Assembly: GCA_019116305.1 (NCBI GenBank)
Contig: DXBY01000049.1
Location: 9,386 to 73,385, forward strand
DNA from: Candidatus Ruania gallistercoris
GTDB taxonomy: Bacteria > Actinomycetota > Actinomycetes > Actinomycetales > Beutenbergiaceae
Length of the DNA: 64,000 nt
Direction of reading: 5' to 3'
Shown here: positions 1,419 to 33,847 of the stretch, one piece after another
Layout: each line of letters begins with the position of its first letter
Numbering within the stretch: the stretch's first letter is position 1
Program-made: the position numbers and the translations under genes
Notes under the pieces: model-generated
Told to the model about the DNA's origin: nothing
What the model saw: only the letters and a program-made list of their open reading frames with translations
Database searches by the model: none

Positions 1419-4400
1419 CACACGGAGAAGTACTTCGCCTCCGGGTGGTGGAAGACGAGTGCGTCGGTGGACTGCTCCGGGTGCAGCTGCAGCTCCTCGC
1501 TCAGGCTCACCCCGATTCGGTCCGGGCGGAGCAGCTCGACGATCTTCGCCCGGTCGGCCAGGTCCGGGCAGGCCGGGTAGCCGAAGGAGTACCGGGCACC
1601 GCGGTAGGCCACCTTGAACATCCCCTCCAGGTCGTCCGGATCCTCGGCGGCGAAGCCGAGCTCCTCGCGCACCCGGGCGTGCCAGTACTCGGCGAGTGCC
1701 TCGGTCAGCTGCACCGAGAGACCGTGCAGCTCCAGGTACTCCCGGTACCGGTTCTGCGCGAACAGCTCGCCAGTGCGCTCGGCCACCCGCGGGCCGACGG
1801 TGACCAGCTGCATACCGATCACGTCCACCTCCCCGGACTCCCGCGGCCGCACGAAGTCGGCCAGGCACAGGTGCCGGTCCCGGCGCTGGCGGGGAAAGGT
1901 GAACCGGAGCCGCTCGCTGCCGGGCTCCGCGCCGGAGCCGCCGTCCGGGCCGTCGTGGTGCAGGATCACCACGTCATCGCCGTCGGCCACGGCGGGGAAG
2001 TACCCGTACACCACAGAGGGCACGAGCAGATCGTCGGTGGCGATCTGCTCCAACCACTGGCGTAGCCGGGGGCGTCCCTCGGTGGCCACCAGCTCCTCAT
2101 AGCTCGGTCCGTCGCCGCGGCTGGGTTTGAGCCCCCACTGCCCCATGAACGTGGCCCGTTCGTCCAGGAAGGCCGCATACCCGGCCTGGGCGATCCCCTT
2201 CACCACCCGCGTCCCCCAGAACGGCGGGGTGGGCACCGGGTTGTCCGCTGCCACGTCCGACCGTGCCGGCAGCTCTTCCAGCGGGGTCTGCTCGATGGTG
2301 ACCGTGGCATGCCGGCGTTTCTTCAACGGGGGCAGGCCGACGGCGTCGGGAGCCTCTCCACGGGAAACCCGTACCAGCGGCTCCATCAGGCGCAGGCCTT
2401 CGAACGCGTCCCGGGCGTAGCGCACCTGGCCGTCGTAGAGATCGGCCAGGTCGTCCTCGACGTAGACCCGGGTCAGCGCCGCCCCGCCGAGCAGCACCGG
2501 GTAGGTGCCGGCCAGGTCGCGGCCATTCAGCTCCTCGAGATTCTCCTTCATCACCACTGTGGACTTCACCAACAGCCCGCTCATCCCGATCACATCGGCC
2601 TGGTGGGTCTGAGCCGCTTCGATGAAGGCCGACACCGGCTGCTTGATGCCGAGGTTCACCACGGTGTAGCCGTTGTTGGACAAGATGATGTCCACCAGGT
2701 TCTTGCCGATGTCGTGCACGTCCCCGCGTACGGTGCCGAGCACGATCGTGCCCTTGCCGACGTCATCGGCGACCTTCTCCATGTGGGGTTCCAGGTGCGC
2801 TACCGCGGTCTTCATCGTCTCCGCGGACTGCAGCACGAAGGGCAGCTGCATCTCCCCGGCGCCGAACCGCTCCCCCACCACCTTCATCCCGGCCAGCAGG
2901 TGGTCGTTGACGATGTCCAGCGCCTTCCAGCCTTCGGCCAGGCCGGCGTCCAGGTCCTCGGTGAGCCCCTTCATCTCCCCGTCGATGATCCGGCGGGCGA
3001 GCCGTTCGTCCAGCGGCAGACCGGCCAGCTCGGCGGCACGCGCATCCTTCATCGCGGCAGTGTCCACCCCGGAGAACACCTCGAGCAGGTGAGCGAGCGG
3101 ATCATGGGTCATCCCGCCGTCGGCATCGTATTCGCGCTTGTCCCAGACCAGGTCCAGCGCGGCCTGGCGCTGCTCCTCCGGGATCGAGGCGAGCGGGAGG
3201 ATCTTCGCGGCGTGCACGATCGCCGAGTCCAGCCCAGCCTGCACGGCCTCGTGCAGGAACACCGAGTTCAGCACCACCCGAGCTGCCGGGTTCAGCCCGA
3301 AGGACACGTTCGAGACGCCCAGCGTGGTGTGCACCCCGGGGTAGCGCTGCTTCAGCTCGCGGATCGCCTCGATCGTCTCGATCGCGTCCCGCCGGGTCTC
3401 CTCCTGACCGGTGGCGATCGGGAACGTGAGCGCGTCCACGATGATGTCCTGCACGGCCATCCCCCACTGGGTGGTGAGGTCCTCGATCAGCCGGGACGCC
3501 ACCGCGACCTTGTGCTCGGCGGTACGCGCTTGCCCCTGCTCGTCGATGGTCAGCGCCACCACCGCCGCGCCGTGCTCCTTGACCAGCGGCATCACCCGGG
3601 CGTAGCGGGAGGTGGAGCCGTCGCCGTCCTCGAAGTTCACCGAGTTCACCACAGCGCGCCCGCCCACCAGCTCCAGGCCGGCCTGGATCACGTCCGGTTC
3701 GGTGGAGTCGATCACCAGCGGCAGAGTGGAGGCGCTGGCCAGGCGGGAGATCACTTCGTGGGCGTCGCGAACCCCGTCCCGGCCGACGTAGTCGATGCAC
3801 ACGTCCAGCAGGTGCGCACCGTCCCGGGTCTGCGCCCGCGCGATCTGGGTGCACTCGTCCCAGTTCTCGGCGAGCATGGCCTCCCGGAACGCCTTGGAGC
3901 CGTTGGCGTTGGTGCGCTCCCCGATCGCCAGGAACGCGGCGTCCTGGTCGAAGTCGGTGTGCGAGTACAGGCTGGCCACCCCGTGGGTGGGCTCGGGGGT
4001 GCGAGGGGTGATCGGCTTGCCGTGCACGGCCTCCACGACGGCGCGCAGGTGCTCCGGAGTGGTGCCGCAGCAGCCCCCCACCAGCGACAGGCCGAACTCG
4101 GACGTGAACTGGGTGTGCGCGGCGGCCAGCTCGGCGGGGGTGAGCGGATACTCGGCACCGTTCTTGCCGAGCACCGGCAGCCCGGCGTTCGGCTGGCAGG
4201 TCACCGGGATGCTCGCGTGCTTGGCCAGGTAGCGCAGGTGCTCGCTCATCTCGGTCGGGCCGGTGGCACAGTTCAGCCCGATCGCATCGATGCCCAAGGC
4301 CTGCAGCACGGTCAGGGCCGCACCGATCTCCGAACCCATCAGCATGGTGCCGGTGGTCTCCACGGTCACCTGGGCGATGATCGGGATGTCGACGGCGGTG

Positions 4401-13517: not shown

Positions 13518-14468
13518 CTAGTCCCGCGGGCCCTCCGCGAGTACGGCCAGCACCCGCTGCACCGACGAGCCCAACCCCCACCGTGCGGTGAGCTCATCGA
13601 GCGCCTCGGCATCGGCCGGGAGCGGTCCGGCCGTCCCGGGCAGGCGCAGGTCCAGATCGCCCAGGTCGAGACCCCGGGCCACGGCAACCACCTGCACGGC
13701 GGCGTCGAGGTAGTCCCCGGCCGCGTTCAGCTTGCCGCGCAGCCCAGCCGCCAGCGGGGTGGCCGGGTCCGCGGCGGCGGCCCGGATCCCAGCGAGGTCG
13801 CCATAGGAGGCGAGCAGCGAGGCGGCGGTCTTGTCCCCCACCCCGGCCACACCGGGTAGCCCGTCCGAGGCATCCCCGCGCAAGGTGGCGAAGTCGGCAT
13901 ACTGATCGGCGCGCACGTGGTACTTCTCGCTCACGACGGCGTCGGTCACCACGTCGTGCTTGCTCACCCCGCGTGCGGTGTACAGCACCCGGACCGGCCC
14001 GCCCGCCGCGGCGTCGTCGACGAGCTGGAACAGGTCCCGGTCCCCGGTGACCACGTCCACCGCCATCCCGGCGTCGGTGGCGAGGGTGCCGATCACATCG
14101 TCCGCCTCGTACCCGTCCGCGCCGATCACCGGGATCCCGATCGCGGCCAGGGTCTGGGCGATCACCGGCACCTGGACCCCGAGCGGGTCCGGTACCTCCT
14201 CCACATCCGTGCCGGCCGGTACCTCCTCGACCACCCGGTGCCCCTTGTAGGAGGGGATCAGGTCCACCCGCCACTGCGGGCGCCAGTCGTTGTCCCAGCA
14301 GCAGGCCAGGTGGCTGGGCTGGTACTGGGTGACCAGCCGGGTGATGAAGTCCAGCAGTCCGCGCACGGCGTTCACCGGCGTCCCGTCCGGGGCGGTGATC
14401 GTGTCCGGGACGCCGAAGTAGGCACGGAAGTACAGGCTTGCGGTATCCAGCAGCAGAAGTCGGCTCAC
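13518..14468 (-). CDS. 5'-3' exonuclease / flap endonuclease (PolI N-terminal-like)
   Basis: LLLDTASLYFRAYFG, GYEADDVIGT, VTGDRDLFQL and GDASDGLPGVAGVGDKTA (H3TH). Confidence 0.95.
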   Translation of the reverse strand: MSRLLLLDTASLYFRAYFGVPDTITAPDGTPVNAVRGLLDFITRLVTQYQPSHLACCWDNDWRPQWRVDLIPSYKGHRVVEEVPAGTDVEEVPDPLGVQVPVIAQTLAAIGIPVIGADGYEADDVIGTLATDAGMAVDVVTGDRDLFQLVDDAAAGGPVRVLYTARGVSKHDVVTDAVVSEKYHVRADQYADFATLRGDASDGLPGVAGVGDKTAASLLASYGDLAGIRAAAADPATPLAAGLRGKLNAAGDYLDAAVQVVAVARGLDLGDLDLRLPGTAGPLPADAEALDELTARWGLGSSVQRVLAVLAEGPRD

Positions 14469-14481
14469 CCTCCAGACCGTA

Positions 14482-14527
14482 GTCGTCCGGTCAGGAGTGC
14501 GCTATGACGCACCCCTGAACGGACGAC
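14482..14527. repeat. 46-bp REP-like palindrome, copy 1
   Basis: GTCGTCCGGTCAGGAGTGCG-CTATGA-CGCACCCCTGAACGGACGAC; arms pair at 18 of 20 positions. Confidence 0.8.
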
Positions 14528-14588
14528 CTCGGTGGGGTGGTGGAATTGCGGCCGGGAACTGGCCTGAATCCCCTCTAGCGTCGGCGTC

Positions 14589-15740
14589 ATGACCGATCAC
14601 AGCGCCTTGACGCCGTTCACCATCGATATCCCGCAGACTCAGATCGAGGACCTCCAGGCTCGGCTGGCCGCTGCCCGCTGGCCGGACCAGCTGCCCGACG
14701 TCGGCTGGAGCCAGGGCGCGCCGGTGCCCGAGGTGCGTGAGCTCGCCGAGCACTGGCGCACCGGCTATGACTGGCGTCGCCACGAGGCCCGGCTGAATGA
14801 GTACCCCCAGTTCGTCACCGAGATCGACGGGCAGCGACTGCACTTCTTCCATGTGCGCTCGCCGGAGCCGGAGGCGCTGCCACTGGTGCTGGTGCACGGT
14901 TGGCCCGGCTCGCCGGTGGAGTTCGAGGCACTGATCGGCCCGCTGACCGACCCGCGGGCGCACGGCGCCGATCCTGCCGACGCTTTCCACCTGGTCATCC
15001 CGACGCTGCCGGGCTTCGGCTTCTCGGGGCCGACCGGTGCCGCCGGCCAGGCCTCCACCGAACGCTCCGCCGAGCTGATCGCGGCGCTGATGGACCGGTT
15101 GGGCTACCCGCGGTACGGCGCCCAGGGCGGGGACGCCGGCTCGTTCATCGCCCCACAGCTGGGTCGGCTGCACCCGGACCGGGTGGCCGGTGTGCACGTC
15201 AATGCCCTGATCACCATCCCGCCGTGGGACATCGACAGCGCCGAATTCAGCCCCGCCGACCAGGCGAAGCTGGCCGAGCTGCAGGACTGGAGCAGCAACT
15301 CCACCTCCGGGTACGCCGCCATCCAGTCCACCCGGCCGCAGGCCCTCGCCTACGGGCTCACCGACTCACCCGTCGGCCTGCTCGGCTGGATCGCGGACAT
15401 CTTCCACCTCTTCACCAACCCTGCCCACGACCGCCCCGCCGACGCTCTGGCCGTGGACGCGTTCCTGACCAACCTGAGCCTGATGTACTTCACCGGCACG
15501 GTCGGATCGTCGATGCGGCTGTACACCGACGGCGATCAGTGGGGCGCTGCGCTGCCCTCCTCCGGTGTGCCCACCGCATGTGCGGTGTTCCCCGGGGACA
15601 GCACGATCCGCGGGATCGCCGAGCAGCAGAACAATCTGGTGCGGTGGACCGAGTTCGACCGCGGCGGGCACTTCGCCGCACTGGAGGCGCCCGACCTGCT
15701 GGTAGCCGACCTGCGGGAGTTCTTCGCCTCCCTCAGCTGA
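14589..15740 (+). CDS. Epoxide hydrolase (EHN domain plus alpha/beta hydrolase)
   Basis: PFTIDIP..L..RL...RWP, YDWR, VHGWPGS, AQGGDAG and GGHFAALE. Confidence 0.93.
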
Positions 15741-15741
15741 C

Positions 15742-15787
15742 GTCGTCCGGCGTGGAGTGCGCTATACCGCACTCCGCACCGGACGAC
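15742..15787. repeat. 46-bp REP-like palindrome, copy 2
   Basis: GTCGTCCGGCGTGGAGTGCG-CTATAC-CGCACTCCGCACCGGACGAC. 37 of 46 bases identical to copy 1, exactly 1260 bp downstream. Confidence 0.8.
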
Positions 15788-16709
15788 CCTCGCGCCAGTA
15801 GTCGACAGTGGCGGCGAGACCGTCCCGGAGCGGCGTGGGCTGGAGGTCGAGCAACTCCTCGGTCACCGTGGAGGTCATGACGAACGGGCCGTCCCACATA
15901 TAGGCGGTCTCGGCCACCTCCCGCAGCATGCCACCGAAGACGCCGAGCACCCGCAGCACACCTACGGGAACGGTGAGGATCCGCGGCACCCGCATCCCGG
16001 CCACCTCGGCAGAGATGCGGACCAGTTCGCGCTGGGTGACCGGCGGCGCCGTCGGGGCGTGCAGCACCCGGTTCCACGCCTGCGGCTGGTCGGCGGCCGC
16101 GATCATCGCTGCGGCCAGATCAGGCACGTAGGTGAACGAGTGCGGCTGGTCCAGCCTGCCGATCACCTGCACGCTCTGCCCCGCGAGCAGTCGGGTGACC
16201 ATCCGCTCCCCCGCCATCGCCGTCCGTACCCGTGGGCCGTAGAAGTCCGAGGCGACCATGCTCACCGTGTCCGCCGCATGCTCGCGGCGCGCGCGCAGCA
16301 GCTCGGTGCGCACACCGAGCTTGCCGGTCGTTGCCGCCGACGGCGTTCCTTCCGCCATCGGAGAGTCGACCGGTCCGTAGGAGTACAGGCTCTCCGGGAA
16401 AACCACGACAGCGCCGGCCGCGGCGGCGGCATTCATCACAGTCTGCTCGGCGCCGGGGAGCTCGGCACGCCAAGCGGCTGCCCGGTAGCGGCTGCCATGG
16501 ATGGCGTGGAACACGGCCCGCACGCCTTGTATGGCCCGCTCCAGCTCCGTGGCGTTGTTCACATCGAGCCGAATCCGCTCGATCCGGTCGTGCTCGGGGC
16601 CGCTCCCGGAGCGGGTGGCCAGGCGGACCTGGTCGCCGCGTTCGGCGAGCTGGGTGGCGATCGTGGCGCCGACCGGTCCGGCACCGGTGACGAGGTAGGT
16701 AGTAGACAT
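15762..16709 (-). CDS. NAD-dependent epimerase/dehydratase (atypical SDR)
   Basis: LVTGAGPVG, ESLYSYG, ASDFYGP and HSFTYVPDLA. ATG 16709 follows CAGGAG. Confidence 0.9.
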   Translation of the reverse strand: MSTTYLVTGAGPVGATIATQLAERGDQVRLATRSGSGPEHDRIERIRLDVNNATELERAIQGVRAVFHAIHGSRYRAAAWRAELPGAEQTVMNAAAAAGAVVVFPESLYSYGPVDSPMAEGTPSAATTGKLGVRTELLRARREHAADTVSMVASDFYGPRVRTAMAGERMVTRLLAGQSVQVIGRLDQPHSFTYVPDLAAAMIAAADQPQAWNRVLHAPTAPPVTQRELVRISAEVAGMRVPRILTVPVGVLRVLGVFGGMLREVAETAYMWDGPFVMTSTVTEELLDLQPTPLRDGLAATVDYWREGRPVRSAV

Positions 16710-16749
16710 GACTTCTCCTGATCGGGTCGTGGTGCGGAGCAGAGAATGA

Positions 16750-16812
16750 GAGAGCACTGCTCACATCTCGACTATGCGCCCTCGGTAGTGCCCTGTCAAG
16801 AGCAGTGCTCAC
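16750..16812. promoter_or_regulatory. Two TetR-type palindromic operators flanking a sigma-A promoter of the epimerase
   Basis: GAGCACTGCTC (16752-16762) and GAGCAGTGCTC (16800-16810). On the minus strand, TTGACA (16799-16794)-N17-CATAGT (16776-16771) lies between them. Confidence 0.8.
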
Positions 16813-16886: not shown

Positions 16887-17591
16887 ATGAGTCCCACCCC
16901 ACGAGAGCTTGCGCGCGAGCGCACCGAGGCGGAGATCCTGCGCCTGGCGTGCGATCAGCTCGCCACCGCCGGACCCGCCGAACTCTCGTTGCGGGCGATC
17001 GCACGCGAGCTCGGCATCGTCTCCTCCGCGATCTACCGGTACGTGCGCAACCGCGACGAGCTGCTCACCCTGCTGGTGATCGACAGTTACAACGAGCTCG
17101 GTGACGCTGTGGACCAGGCGACCTCCGCCGTCGCCGACGAGGACTACCTGGGCAGGTTCCTGACCCTGGGCCGGGCGGTGCGCACCTGGGCGCTGGCCGA
17201 ACCGGCGCGGTATGCGCTGCTGTACGGCACGCCGGTGCCCGGGTACGACGCTCCGGGCGATCGCACGACGGCTCCGGGGACGCGGGTGGCATTCGCCCTG
17301 GCGAAGATCGCGGACGAGGCGTGGCGCGCCGGCAGGTTGCGCGAGAGTGGCCGGGTGGCGAGCGGAGCCGCGAGCACGCTGGCAGAGGACTTCGCCCGGA
17401 TCCGGGACGAGCTGGAGCTGGCGCTGCCACCCGACTACGTGCAGCCGACCCTGTTCGTCTGGTCAAGCCTGTTCGGCGCCGTCACCTTCGAGGTGTTCGG
17501 TCAGTACGGAACGGACACTCTCTCCGATCCCTCTGCGCTGTTCGAGGCCCACCTGCACCAGCTCGCTGGGGTGCTCGGGCTGACCGACTGA
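16887..17591 (+). CDS. TetR/AcrR family regulator (WHG-like C-terminal domain)
   Basis: LSLRAIARELGIVSSAIYRYV HTH, and WALAEPARYALLYG. Confidence 0.93.
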   Translation: MSPTPRELARERTEAEILRLACDQLATAGPAELSLRAIARELGIVSSAIYRYVRNRDELLTLLVIDSYNELGDAVDQATSAVADEDYLGRFLTLGRAVRTWALAEPARYALLYGTPVPGYDAPGDRTTAPGTRVAFALAKIADEAWRAGRLRESGRVASGAASTLAEDFARIRDELELALPPDYVQPTLFVWSSLFGAVTFEVFGQYGTDTLSDPSALFEAHLHQLAGVLGLTD

Positions 17592-32830: not shown

Positions 32831-33847
32831 GTGGCTGACCTCCTCGAGTCTACCCCTGCCTCGGGCCGACGGCGTAGGCGGCGCTGGTACCCGTGGCTGA
32901 CCGTCCCGGCGGCCCTGATGGCCACGGTGCTGGCAGTCCTCCCCCATCTTCGGCTGGTCCAGCCGTGGCTGGTGCCGTCGGTGCAGGCCCTGGTGCCGGT
33001 GGTGGCCGTGGCCTGCCTGGTGGTCGCTGTGCTGCTGGTGCTGGTGCGGCGCCGGGCGCCGGCGGTGCTGCTCCTCGCTGGCGCCCTGGCCGGGCTGGCG
33101 CCGGCACTCGTGCCGTGGCCGATGGCCGCTGACGAGCCGGCATCGTCCACCGGCGGGCAGCTGACCGTGCTCAGCCTGAATGTCCAGTACGGTCGCGCCG
33201 ACCGCGAGGCAGTGGTGGACGCGGTGGCCACCCGGGACGTGGAGGTACTGGTCCTGCTGGAAGCCGACGAAGCGCTGCTCGAGGACCTGGCAGCCCTCGG
33301 CCTGACCGAGGCGCTGCCGTACCGGACCGAGCCGATCAGCTCCGGTGGGGCGGCCGGCAGCGCCATCCTCTCCGCCCACCCGCTGCATCTGGAGGGCCGA
33401 ATCGCCCTCCCCCAGGTGAGGGCACAGTTCGACCAGCCGGTCGCCGTCGTCCAGCACCCCGACCTCGGACCGGTCCGGGTGGCCGCGATCCACCCGGTCC
33501 CGCCGATCGATGCGGTCCAGTCCTGGCAGGCGGCCCTGCGCGGCCTGGACGACTGGCAGAGCGCGCACACGGATATACCTCTGGTGCTGGCCGGGGACTT
33601 CAACGCCGGCTACCCACACCCACAGTTCCGCGCGATCGCTGCCGACCTGACCGACACCGCATCGCTGGCCGGACCGCTGCCCCGGCCGACCTGGCCGGTC
33701 GGCGCCCGGGTCCCCGCGTTCACCACGATCGACCACGTCCTGGTGCGTGGCCTGGTCCCGGTCGGCTGGGCACAGGTGACCGTGCCGGGCACCGACCACC
33801 GGGGCATCGCGGCCACGGTGACCCCGACGGCGGACGCGGCCGGCTGA
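32831..33847 (+). CDS. Membrane-anchored endonuclease/exonuclease/phosphatase (EEP, YafD-like)
   Basis: N-terminal TMs, SLNV, LLEAD, AIHPVPP, LAGDFNA, IDHVL and GTDH. Confidence 0.88.
   Translation: MADLLESTPASGRRRRRRWYPWLTVPAALMATVLAVLPHLRLVQPWLVPSVQALVPVVAVACLVVAVLLVLVRRRAPAVLLLAGALAGLAPALVPWPMAADEPASSTGGQLTVLSLNVQYGRADREAVVDAVATRDVEVLVLLEADEALLEDLAALGLTEALPYRTEPISSGGAAGSAILSAHPLHLEGRIALPQVRAQFDQPVAVVQHPDLGPVRVAAIHPVPPIDAVQSWQAALRGLDDWQSAHTDIPLVLAGDFNAGYPHPQFRAIAADLTDTASLAGPLPRPTWPVGARVPAFTTIDHVLVRGLVPVGWAQVTVPGTDHRGIAATVTPTADAAG

Follow-up and report, generated by a model that had tools for sequence, protein, structure and literature searches.

Short palindromic repeats of the REP type have been investigated in detail in Proteobacteria, in which their maintenance is explained by RAYT transposases. 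The REP and REPIN sequences of E. coli and Pseudomonas are short, dispersed, extragenic components of the core genome that lie at gene ends; they are inherited vertically with a lineage-specific consensus, overlap in some cases the 3' end of a coding region, and serve as hot spots for insertion sequences (IS). REP-targeting IS include IS1397 and ISKpn1 of the IS3 family as well as IS110-family elements that insert into REPs. Among the actinobacteria, TRIT is a repeated terminator motif of Mycobacterium tuberculosis, and tail-less hairpin terminators have been proposed for this group. In the tagged REP classes, a GTAG or CGTC motif stands unpaired at one end of the repeat, and the CGTC class has not been reported in Actinobacteria (Di Nocera et al., 2013; PMC3733652). 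The palindromes described here, two of which bracket an epoxide hydrolase gene in a Ruania genome, share with REP and REPIN sequences all the general properties listed above. They differ from them in length (46 nt versus 20-40 nt), in their low number of 9-36 copies per genome, in their occurrence as singlets instead of inverted doublets, in lacking an unpaired GTAG or CGTC tag, and in that a RAYT gene is absent from all ten genomes of the genus analysed. They thus represent REP-like repeats of an actinobacterial genus that has no RAYT. Our literature search returned nothing pertinent on this palindrome family in Ruania or on the targeting of palindromes by IS481 elements.

The genome under study (G000; 4.37 Mb, 69.7% G+C, 357 contigs, 92.7% complete) was compared with nine other Ruania genomes (G001-G009), which gives ten genomes of the genus in total. 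In the window, i.e., the whole analysed stretch of 64,000 nucleotides, the epoxide hydrolase gene occupies positions 14589..15740 on the plus strand, and its product shows Pfam matches to the EHN N-terminal domain and to the alpha/beta hydrolase fold. Its left neighbor (13518..14468, minus strand) encodes a FEN-like 5'-3' exonuclease (PF02739 and PF01367, with the profile match starting from residue 3) and is kept in all nine congeners. The right neighbor (15762..16757, minus strand), convergent with the hydrolase gene, encodes an NAD-dependent epimerase/dehydratase (PF01370). Copy 1 of the palindrome (14482..14527) is located in the divergent spacer between exonuclease and hydrolase, where it terminates 13 nt ahead of the GTG start of the exonuclease and 61 nt from the hydrolase start, and copy 2 (15742..15787) begins 1 nt past the hydrolase stop codon.

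The initial annotation had described these two sequences as 46-nt palindromes bracketing the hydrolase, and this description was borne out: they are identical at 37 of 46 positions (nine differences) and start 1260 nt apart. The coding overlap of copy 2 was likewise read correctly, since its central CTA is the epimerase stop codon on the minus strand and its right arm specifies the last eight residues of that protein, GRPVRSAV. Both copies fold strongly as single strands, copy 1 with -24.5 kcal/mol (z -8.2) and copy 2 with -23.0 kcal/mol (z -6.4), and none of 200 shuffled sequences equalled either value. The half-site pattern of the family (see below) has four exact matches in the window, compared with 0.93 expected at two or fewer mismatches. 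The statement that both copies have the same orientation carries little weight, because the direct match (81%) is hardly better than the inverted one (78%). The reported covariation in the middle of the stem is also only partly true of the two copies: of the three changed positions in copy 2, one forms a Watson-Crick pair while the others give a G.T wobble and a C.A mismatch, and it was generous to speak of pairing being largely kept. No match to a relevant family was obtained for the palindromes in Rfam.

The genome-wide search that had been proposed identified the two palindromes as members of a dispersed family with further copies throughout G000. A profile search with nhmmer retrieved 38 loci from this genome, about 30 of them good, and four congeners carry between 9 and 36 family loci. 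With a half-site pattern built from the conserved blocks, for which the reversed-pattern control gives 0-1 matches, we found 56 matches in G000, 71 in G004, 36 in G007, 18 in G002 and 15 in G009, compared with 0-1 in each of the five other Ruania congeners and 0-3 in each of 26 genomes from ten other genera of the same bacterial family. When one genome from each of 185,579 species was scanned for the exact pattern, multiple matches were obtained only for Ruania albidiflava DSM 18029, a Ruania sp. MAG and an uncultured Ruaniaceae MAG, and all remaining matches were single and scattered. Since the matches are confined to few Ruania genomes, the family belongs to one Ruania subclade of five species. 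In the light of this distribution, and of the genomic positions discussed below, we consider it rather probable that the two palindromes at the hydrolase are ordinary copies of a lineage-restricted dispersed repeat, and that the bracketing results from the habit of this repeat of occupying neighboring gene boundaries. The family as a whole is best read as a REP-like, probably protein-read gene-boundary repeat and a recombination hotspot.

The anatomy of the repeat was derived from 52 aligned copies of three species, together with per-genome tables. Each copy is a two-fold symmetric sequence of 46 bp composed of two 21-bp half-sites around a 4-bp centre, which is chiefly TATA, CATA/TATG or CAGA/TCTG. 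The half-site contains near-invariant blocks, namely GTCGTC (positions 1-6), G at position 9 followed by T or C at position 10, and GTGCGC (positions 16-21), and the right arm mirrors this arrangement. Position 7 is limited to C or A and position 8 to G or T (M-K), while positions 11-15 are loose and mainly G/C. Of the half-sites, 36-38% have a C-rich box resembling CCCACC in the 30 nt of their outer flank, compared with a background of 4.4%. This anatomy does not agree with the assignment of the two palindromes to the tagged REP classes. CGTC, which had been taken as a tag, sits in the paired stem on both arms, and GTAG precedes few copies only; at copy 1 it corresponds to the reverse complement of the TACGGT/TACCGT box of the exonuclease.

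The copies occupy short spaces at gene ends. For most of them, a stop codon is no more than about 30 nt away, with 24 of 29 measured distances from stop codon to palindrome edge falling within -42 to +34 nt, and 9 of 25 copies are located between convergent genes where about five would be expected (P = 0.06). They occur as singlets, with nearest neighbors at least 1.0 kb apart and no inverted doublets. The 55 genes that flank the copies of G004 have diverse housekeeping and metabolic functions, and no nuclease or transposase recurs among them. The idea of a bracketed partner gene of the family was rejected on this diversity; the bracketed gene of a 319-aa protein (see below) is also missing from its locus in three carrier species.

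Such positions, together with the strong hairpins, would suit a repeat that is kept only for RNA hairpins ending or stabilizing transcripts, the similarity between copies being due to the spread of one module. Turnover is seen as well, since at some sites a family copy in one species faces an unrelated hairpin or a remnant in another. The explanation is also favored by the long unrelated hairpins of other species at orthologous sites and by the copy 2 site of G002, where a hairpin with a different GC stem sequence is present, which hints that a hairpin at this site matters. The family resembles TRIT and the tail-less terminators in being a conserved repeated hairpin after genes, often convergent ones, in a high-GC actinobacterium; it differs from them in the absence of a U tract, in the lack of covariation and in the presence of some copies in divergent promoter regions. 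A terminator scan of positions 14200-16000 returned no sites, and no T tract follows the stem-loops. Furthermore, 5 of 25 copies, copy 1 included, lie between divergent genes, where there is nothing to terminate, and the near-100% conservation of the blocks as well as the M/K-limited positions exceed what a stem needs.

Pairing itself speaks against the terminator explanation too. Watson-Crick pairs between the arms number 421 in G000, where shuffled partners give 423.8 ± 5.8, and 569 in G004, where they give 564.0 ± 6.1. Within one genome, positions 7-8 and 11-15 thus vary independently between the arms while the conserved blocks are kept, and between 13 and 30 of the 52 copies are unpaired at positions 13-15. 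As there is no covariation within genomes, the label "covarying" fails for the family. When the three species are pooled, a slight excess appears (86.9% paired cells versus 84.2% after shuffling), and some selection on pairing may exist in view of it. The excess stems mainly from lineage-specific states, e.g., position 10-37, which is T-A in G000 and G004 and C-G in G007, and a change of the half-site consensus alone predicts the same excess without selection on pairing. G.U wobbles were counted 22 times on the sense strand and 19 times on the antisense strand of the upstream gene, and most mismatches are of the non-wobble type; selection at the RNA level, which had been considered as a candidate, was rejected on the absence of this strand bias. 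Taken together, we regard terminator function as the sole reason for the palindromes as very unlikely. Base pairing would then not be the target of selection in the REP-like repeat that we favor, where the copies probably also serve as gene-boundary hairpins on transcripts.

The constraints on the half-site resemble those of a duplex that is read by a protein, and the C/A and G/T limits at positions 7 and 8 in particular are the pattern that would be expected of such read-out. One way to account for this is that copies 1 and 2 bind a local regulator, e.g., the neighboring TetR-family protein (gene at 16887-17591), which would control exonuclease and hydrolase. Copy 1, as noted initially, adjoins a -10-like hexamer of the exonuclease (TACGGT, 14476..14481, minus strand, 7 nt upstream of the GTG), it overlaps the region upstream of this box, and it is close to the hydrolase start as well. 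The hexamer, a putative promoter element, is conserved as TACGGT or TACCGT in G004, G002 and G007, whether or not a palindrome lies beside it, and a sigma-70 consensus scan gave no promoter match for it. Local regulation is nevertheless extremely unlikely as an explanation: about 30 copies lie beside unrelated housekeeping genes and mainly at their 3' ends, conservation of the TetR-family gene extends to congeners without the palindrome family, and copy 2 lies between two gene ends. In the favored reading of a dispersed repeat, the conserved blocks would instead be read as duplex DNA by a putative two-fold symmetric factor, or be kept alike by gene conversion.

Comparison of orthologous sites points to mostly vertical inheritance of the copies. 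Of about 26 syntenic copies in G004, no fewer than 17 are matched by a family member at the corresponding position in G000; for G007, at least 11 of 19 copies are matched in this way in G000 or G004. Orthologous copies differ almost solely at positions 7-8 and 11-15, in the centre and at the mirror positions, while the flanking DNA diverges. Position 7 differs in 11 of 14 orthologous pairs. Position 8 is G in G000 (41/52) and T in G004 (52/64) and G007 (36/38), at position 10 G007 has C (29/38) where G000 and G004 have T, and these lineage-specific states recur at orthologous arms. Such a lineage-wide drift of the consensus at orthologous sites implies a homogenizing process or co-evolution with a putative trans-acting factor; it is the persistence of the blocks at orthologous sites during this shift that calls for one or the other. 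Restriction-site avoidance was considered for the shift between CCGG and CATG/CCTG and was discarded, the observed/expected ratio of CCGG being 1.05-1.13 in all species sets.

No known mobilizer could be connected with the family. The initial annotation had suggested a RAYT or IS200-like transposase, but the Y1_Tnp domain (PF01797), whose gene in RAYT systems typically has REPs on its flanks, was found in none of the ten Ruania genomes, several of which are complete, while the same search detected it in 6 of 14 reference genomes; a mobilizer of this type was rejected on this absence. A protelomerase (PF16684), as a candidate for hairpin-telomere fusion, is absent from the five palindrome-bearing genomes. 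Two traits are MITE-like: the arms of the palindrome resemble terminal inverted repeats that abut each other, and genes are flanked by copy pairs in the way expected of composite elements. Unlike MITEs, however, the palindromes have no target-site duplication, and most copies are orthologous rather than insertion-polymorphic. For 57 copies, direct repeats at eight boundary offsets and four lengths were not above those in shuffled flanks, and a MITE-type duplication was rejected accordingly. In a search of G000, G002 and G004 for an autonomous element with palindrome-type ends (half-sites separated by 0.7-3 kb), only IS481-like insertions, which have unrelated TGTG...CACA ends, were found at half-sites.

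The alternative put forward at the outset was that the palindromes had delivered the hydrolase gene, or allow its excision, as a cassette. In this model they are recombination sites that bring the gene in and out as a palindrome-gene-palindrome module, either by recombination of a circle with one palindrome and a chromosomal palindrome or by two copies acting as a composite element. The hydrolase is indeed a presence/absence gene between exonuclease and epimerase: it is present in G000, G004 (88% aa identity to G000) and G002 (75% aa identity) only, and in G003, G005, G006, G007 and G008 exonuclease and epimerase lie side by side, about 45-700 nt apart. An empty site that retains one palindrome, as expected under this model, was not observed, however, as none of these five species has a family member there. 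This includes G007, a member of the carrier subclade, whose empty site contains neither a family member nor a significant hairpin; the 3' end of its epimerase gene contains CCTGACCGG, which matches the consensus right arm.

In the species with the hydrolase, both palindromes can be traced. The G004 ortholog of copy 1 shows a change from CG to AT on both arms, and that of copy 2 a compensated change from G-C to T-A, the right-arm changes being synonymous for the epimerase. G002 has homologous yet decayed sequence at both sites, below the detection level of the profile. As the palindromes are orthologous or decayed wherever the hydrolase is present, they are about as old as the presence of the hydrolase at this locus. 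A tree of the two flanking genes, ((G000,G004),(G002,G007)) with 87-91% support, would imply loss of the hydrolase in G007; two indels common to G004 and G002 alone argue for another topology. Among 151 genomes of the order, the nearest homolog of the hydrolase is a paralog in the same genome (57% aa identity, contig C44) without palindromes nearby, followed by homologs with 52-53% identity at best. According to the favored reading, the hydrolase would be an accessory gene that has such copies at both of its boundaries.

Additional gene differences next to palindromes were observed elsewhere in the genus. In G004, five pairs of copies are less than 2.5 kb apart (1.0-2.1 kb), where 0.55 would be expected (P = 0.0003), i.e., copy pairs at distances of 1-2 kb are tenfold more common than by chance. 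These pairs enclose the exonuclease and hydrolase genes, the genes for a luciferase-like monooxygenase and for a 319-aa protein without Pfam match, and the DAHP synthase gene plus a second ORF. The gene of the 319-aa protein (about 1 kb) is restricted to G004 and G002, and both species have a palindrome copy on either side of it. A deletion is seen in G000, where the rib operon has disappeared from between two ancestral palindromes, one of which is left at the site; rib-operon or G004-type island sequence lies between the same flanks in nine of nine congeners, and the boundaries of the operon carry palindromes in G007 and G009. An inversion concerns a single 0.8-kb gene beside the copy at C176:8480 of G000, which is flipped relative to G004. 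One deletion, one inversion and the presence/absence differences of two single genes are thus marked by palindromes, and in this way repeats shape gene content on a small scale.

These observations favor the cassette model, and they are opposed by others. At the empty site of the 319-aa gene, in G000, G007 and G009, a different 64-nt palindrome is present, and so neither this case nor G007 at the hydrolase locus provides an empty site with a single family palindrome. Core genes such as those for the exonuclease and DAHP synthase are bracketed as well, both modules are single-copy and syntenic, and neither RAYT, protelomerase nor a recurring recombinase is found beside the copies, as are no target-site duplications. 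In addition, the bracketed inserts were sought near palindromes only, and their number is subject to this ascertainment bias. The likeness to integron cassettes, in which imperfect palindromes (attC) also bracket single promoter-less accessory genes, is limited by the scattering of the Ruania palindromes as single copies next to core genes, by the absence of arrays and by a consensus without the GTTRRRY core. We judge the cassette model, with delivery or excision of the hydrolase by the palindromes, possible but unlikely. Two bracketed lineage-specific inserts whose empty sites lack family members are, on the other hand, not predicted by a pure bystander role, and the second insert, the 319-aa gene, makes a causal role of the palindromes in gene movement worth testing. 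In a more far-reaching form, which we consider quite unlikely, the vertically inherited, RAYT-independent palindromes would co-evolve with a putative site-specific, two-fold symmetric DNA-binding or recombination protein, and the copies would be portable sites for inserting, deleting and inverting single genes, i.e., a cassette-like system in Actinobacteria.

For the dispersed repeat that we prefer, rearrangements could arise from the sequence itself. The conserved blocks still permit a strong hairpin or cruciform, and the sites might for this reason be fragile and recombinogenic, draw IS481-like insertions at their exact centre and come to mark deletions and inversions. In G004, two palindromes are each split by an identical 1.3-kb IS481-like element with TGTG...CACA ends, and the genome holds just these two copies of the element, whose HTH + rve transposase gene is frameshifted within the catalytic domain. 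Each insertion lies between direct repeats of 16 bp, a duplication of exactly the inner hairpin, GTGCGC-NNNN-GCGCAC. In G002, the centre of another copy contains an IS481-like element distinct from that of G004, with its 489-aa ORF intact and with a duplication of 14 bp, and contig C251 of G000 carries, between duplicated centres, a 30-nt relic similar to the right end of the G002 element. Since the loop is duplicated in direct orientation (one informative case), these repeats represent target duplication and not the ends of the element. A duplication that equals the extruded hairpin suggests that IS481-like elements attack a cruciform and that the sites extrude in vivo.

As in the REP-targeting IS, elements with a DDE (rve) transposase have inserted here at one fixed position of a palindrome in independent events; the Ruania case differs in the type of element, IS481-like with HTH + rve + rve_3, and in the duplication of 14-16 bp that comprises the whole inner hairpin. 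The IS481-like transposase was also considered as a caretaker of the family and was rejected, as its distribution does not track that of the palindromes: G001, which is without the family, has six copies of such elements, and G000 has none. It follows that the IS481-like elements use the palindromes and do not make them.

In the congener G004, two copies of a 1.3-kb IS481-like element (L060:2886-4193, i.e., G004:C1:2550885-2552192, and L066, i.e., G004:C1:4428857-4430168), the sole copies of that element in the genome, each interrupt a family palindrome exactly at its centre, and the 16-bp target duplication found at both matches the inner hairpin. The two elements are identical in sequence, with ends TGTG...CACA, and their transposase (HTH plus rve) carries a frameshift that splits the ORF after the first catalytic Asp and before the second. 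A distinct IS481-like element interrupts the centre of a further palindrome in G002 (L071:2035-3371, contig C141), with a 14-bp duplication; its minus-strand ORF of 489 aa (HTH plus rve plus rve_3) is intact. In Candidatus Ruania gallistercoris (G000) itself, a palindrome outside the window (contig C251:43656-43751) has duplicated centres separated by a 30-nt filler, which is probably an IS relic, since it is similar to the right end of the G002 element.

Family palindromes also lie at sites where gene content or orientation differs within the genus. On contig C20 of G000, the riboflavin operon (FMN riboswitch, ribBA, ribH) has been lost and a single palindrome has been kept (32861-32908), as seen by comparison with L072 (G004:C1:735000-754800); all other genomes of the genus have rib or G004-type island sequence at the equivalent site. 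This defence-like island of 14 kb, located between the rib operon on one side and a palindrome on the other, is present only in G004 (L072:4457-18850) and G002 (contigs C32 and C147). It encodes a SNF2/ResIII helicase with a NOV_C domain, an HNH_2 endonuclease, a DUF1156 protein and a DUF499 protein with a Swt1-like HEPN domain. A single 0.8-kb gene (G000 contig C176:7628-8439) has the opposite orientation in G004 (L053). One end of the inversion lies at a family palindrome; at the other end, G004 has a degenerate copy and G000 a hairpin of unrelated sequence.

Where G004 and G002 have a 1-kb gene bracketed by palindromes, G000 (L100, C189:4638-4722), G009 (L101, C59) and G007 (L102, C3) share a conserved 64-nt palindrome of 19 bp outer arms around the centre GTGC-TCTA-GCAC, which differs in sequence from the 46-nt family. 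Orthologous gene ends elsewhere (G000 C339, C176) likewise have long GC-rich hairpins of unrelated sequence. Within the window, an isolated minus-strand half-site match with two mismatches (3768-3787) was judged a chance hit; in the pattern search it did not belong to a palindrome, and the profile search did not recover it.

The epimerase tail beyond the conserved Y-W-R (window 15762-15790) is variable across the genus. It reads EGRPVRSAV in G000 and likewise ends GRPVRSAV in G004, and in both genomes its coding sequence is a palindrome arm; the tail is QAEPVRTAA in G002, longer with the final residues PVRT in G007, and unrelated or absent in outgroup epimerases. The epoxide hydrolase of the window has a paralogue of 57% aa identity on G000 contig C44 (14620-15747), near which no palindrome was found, and a third, more distant paralogue is encoded on contig C35.
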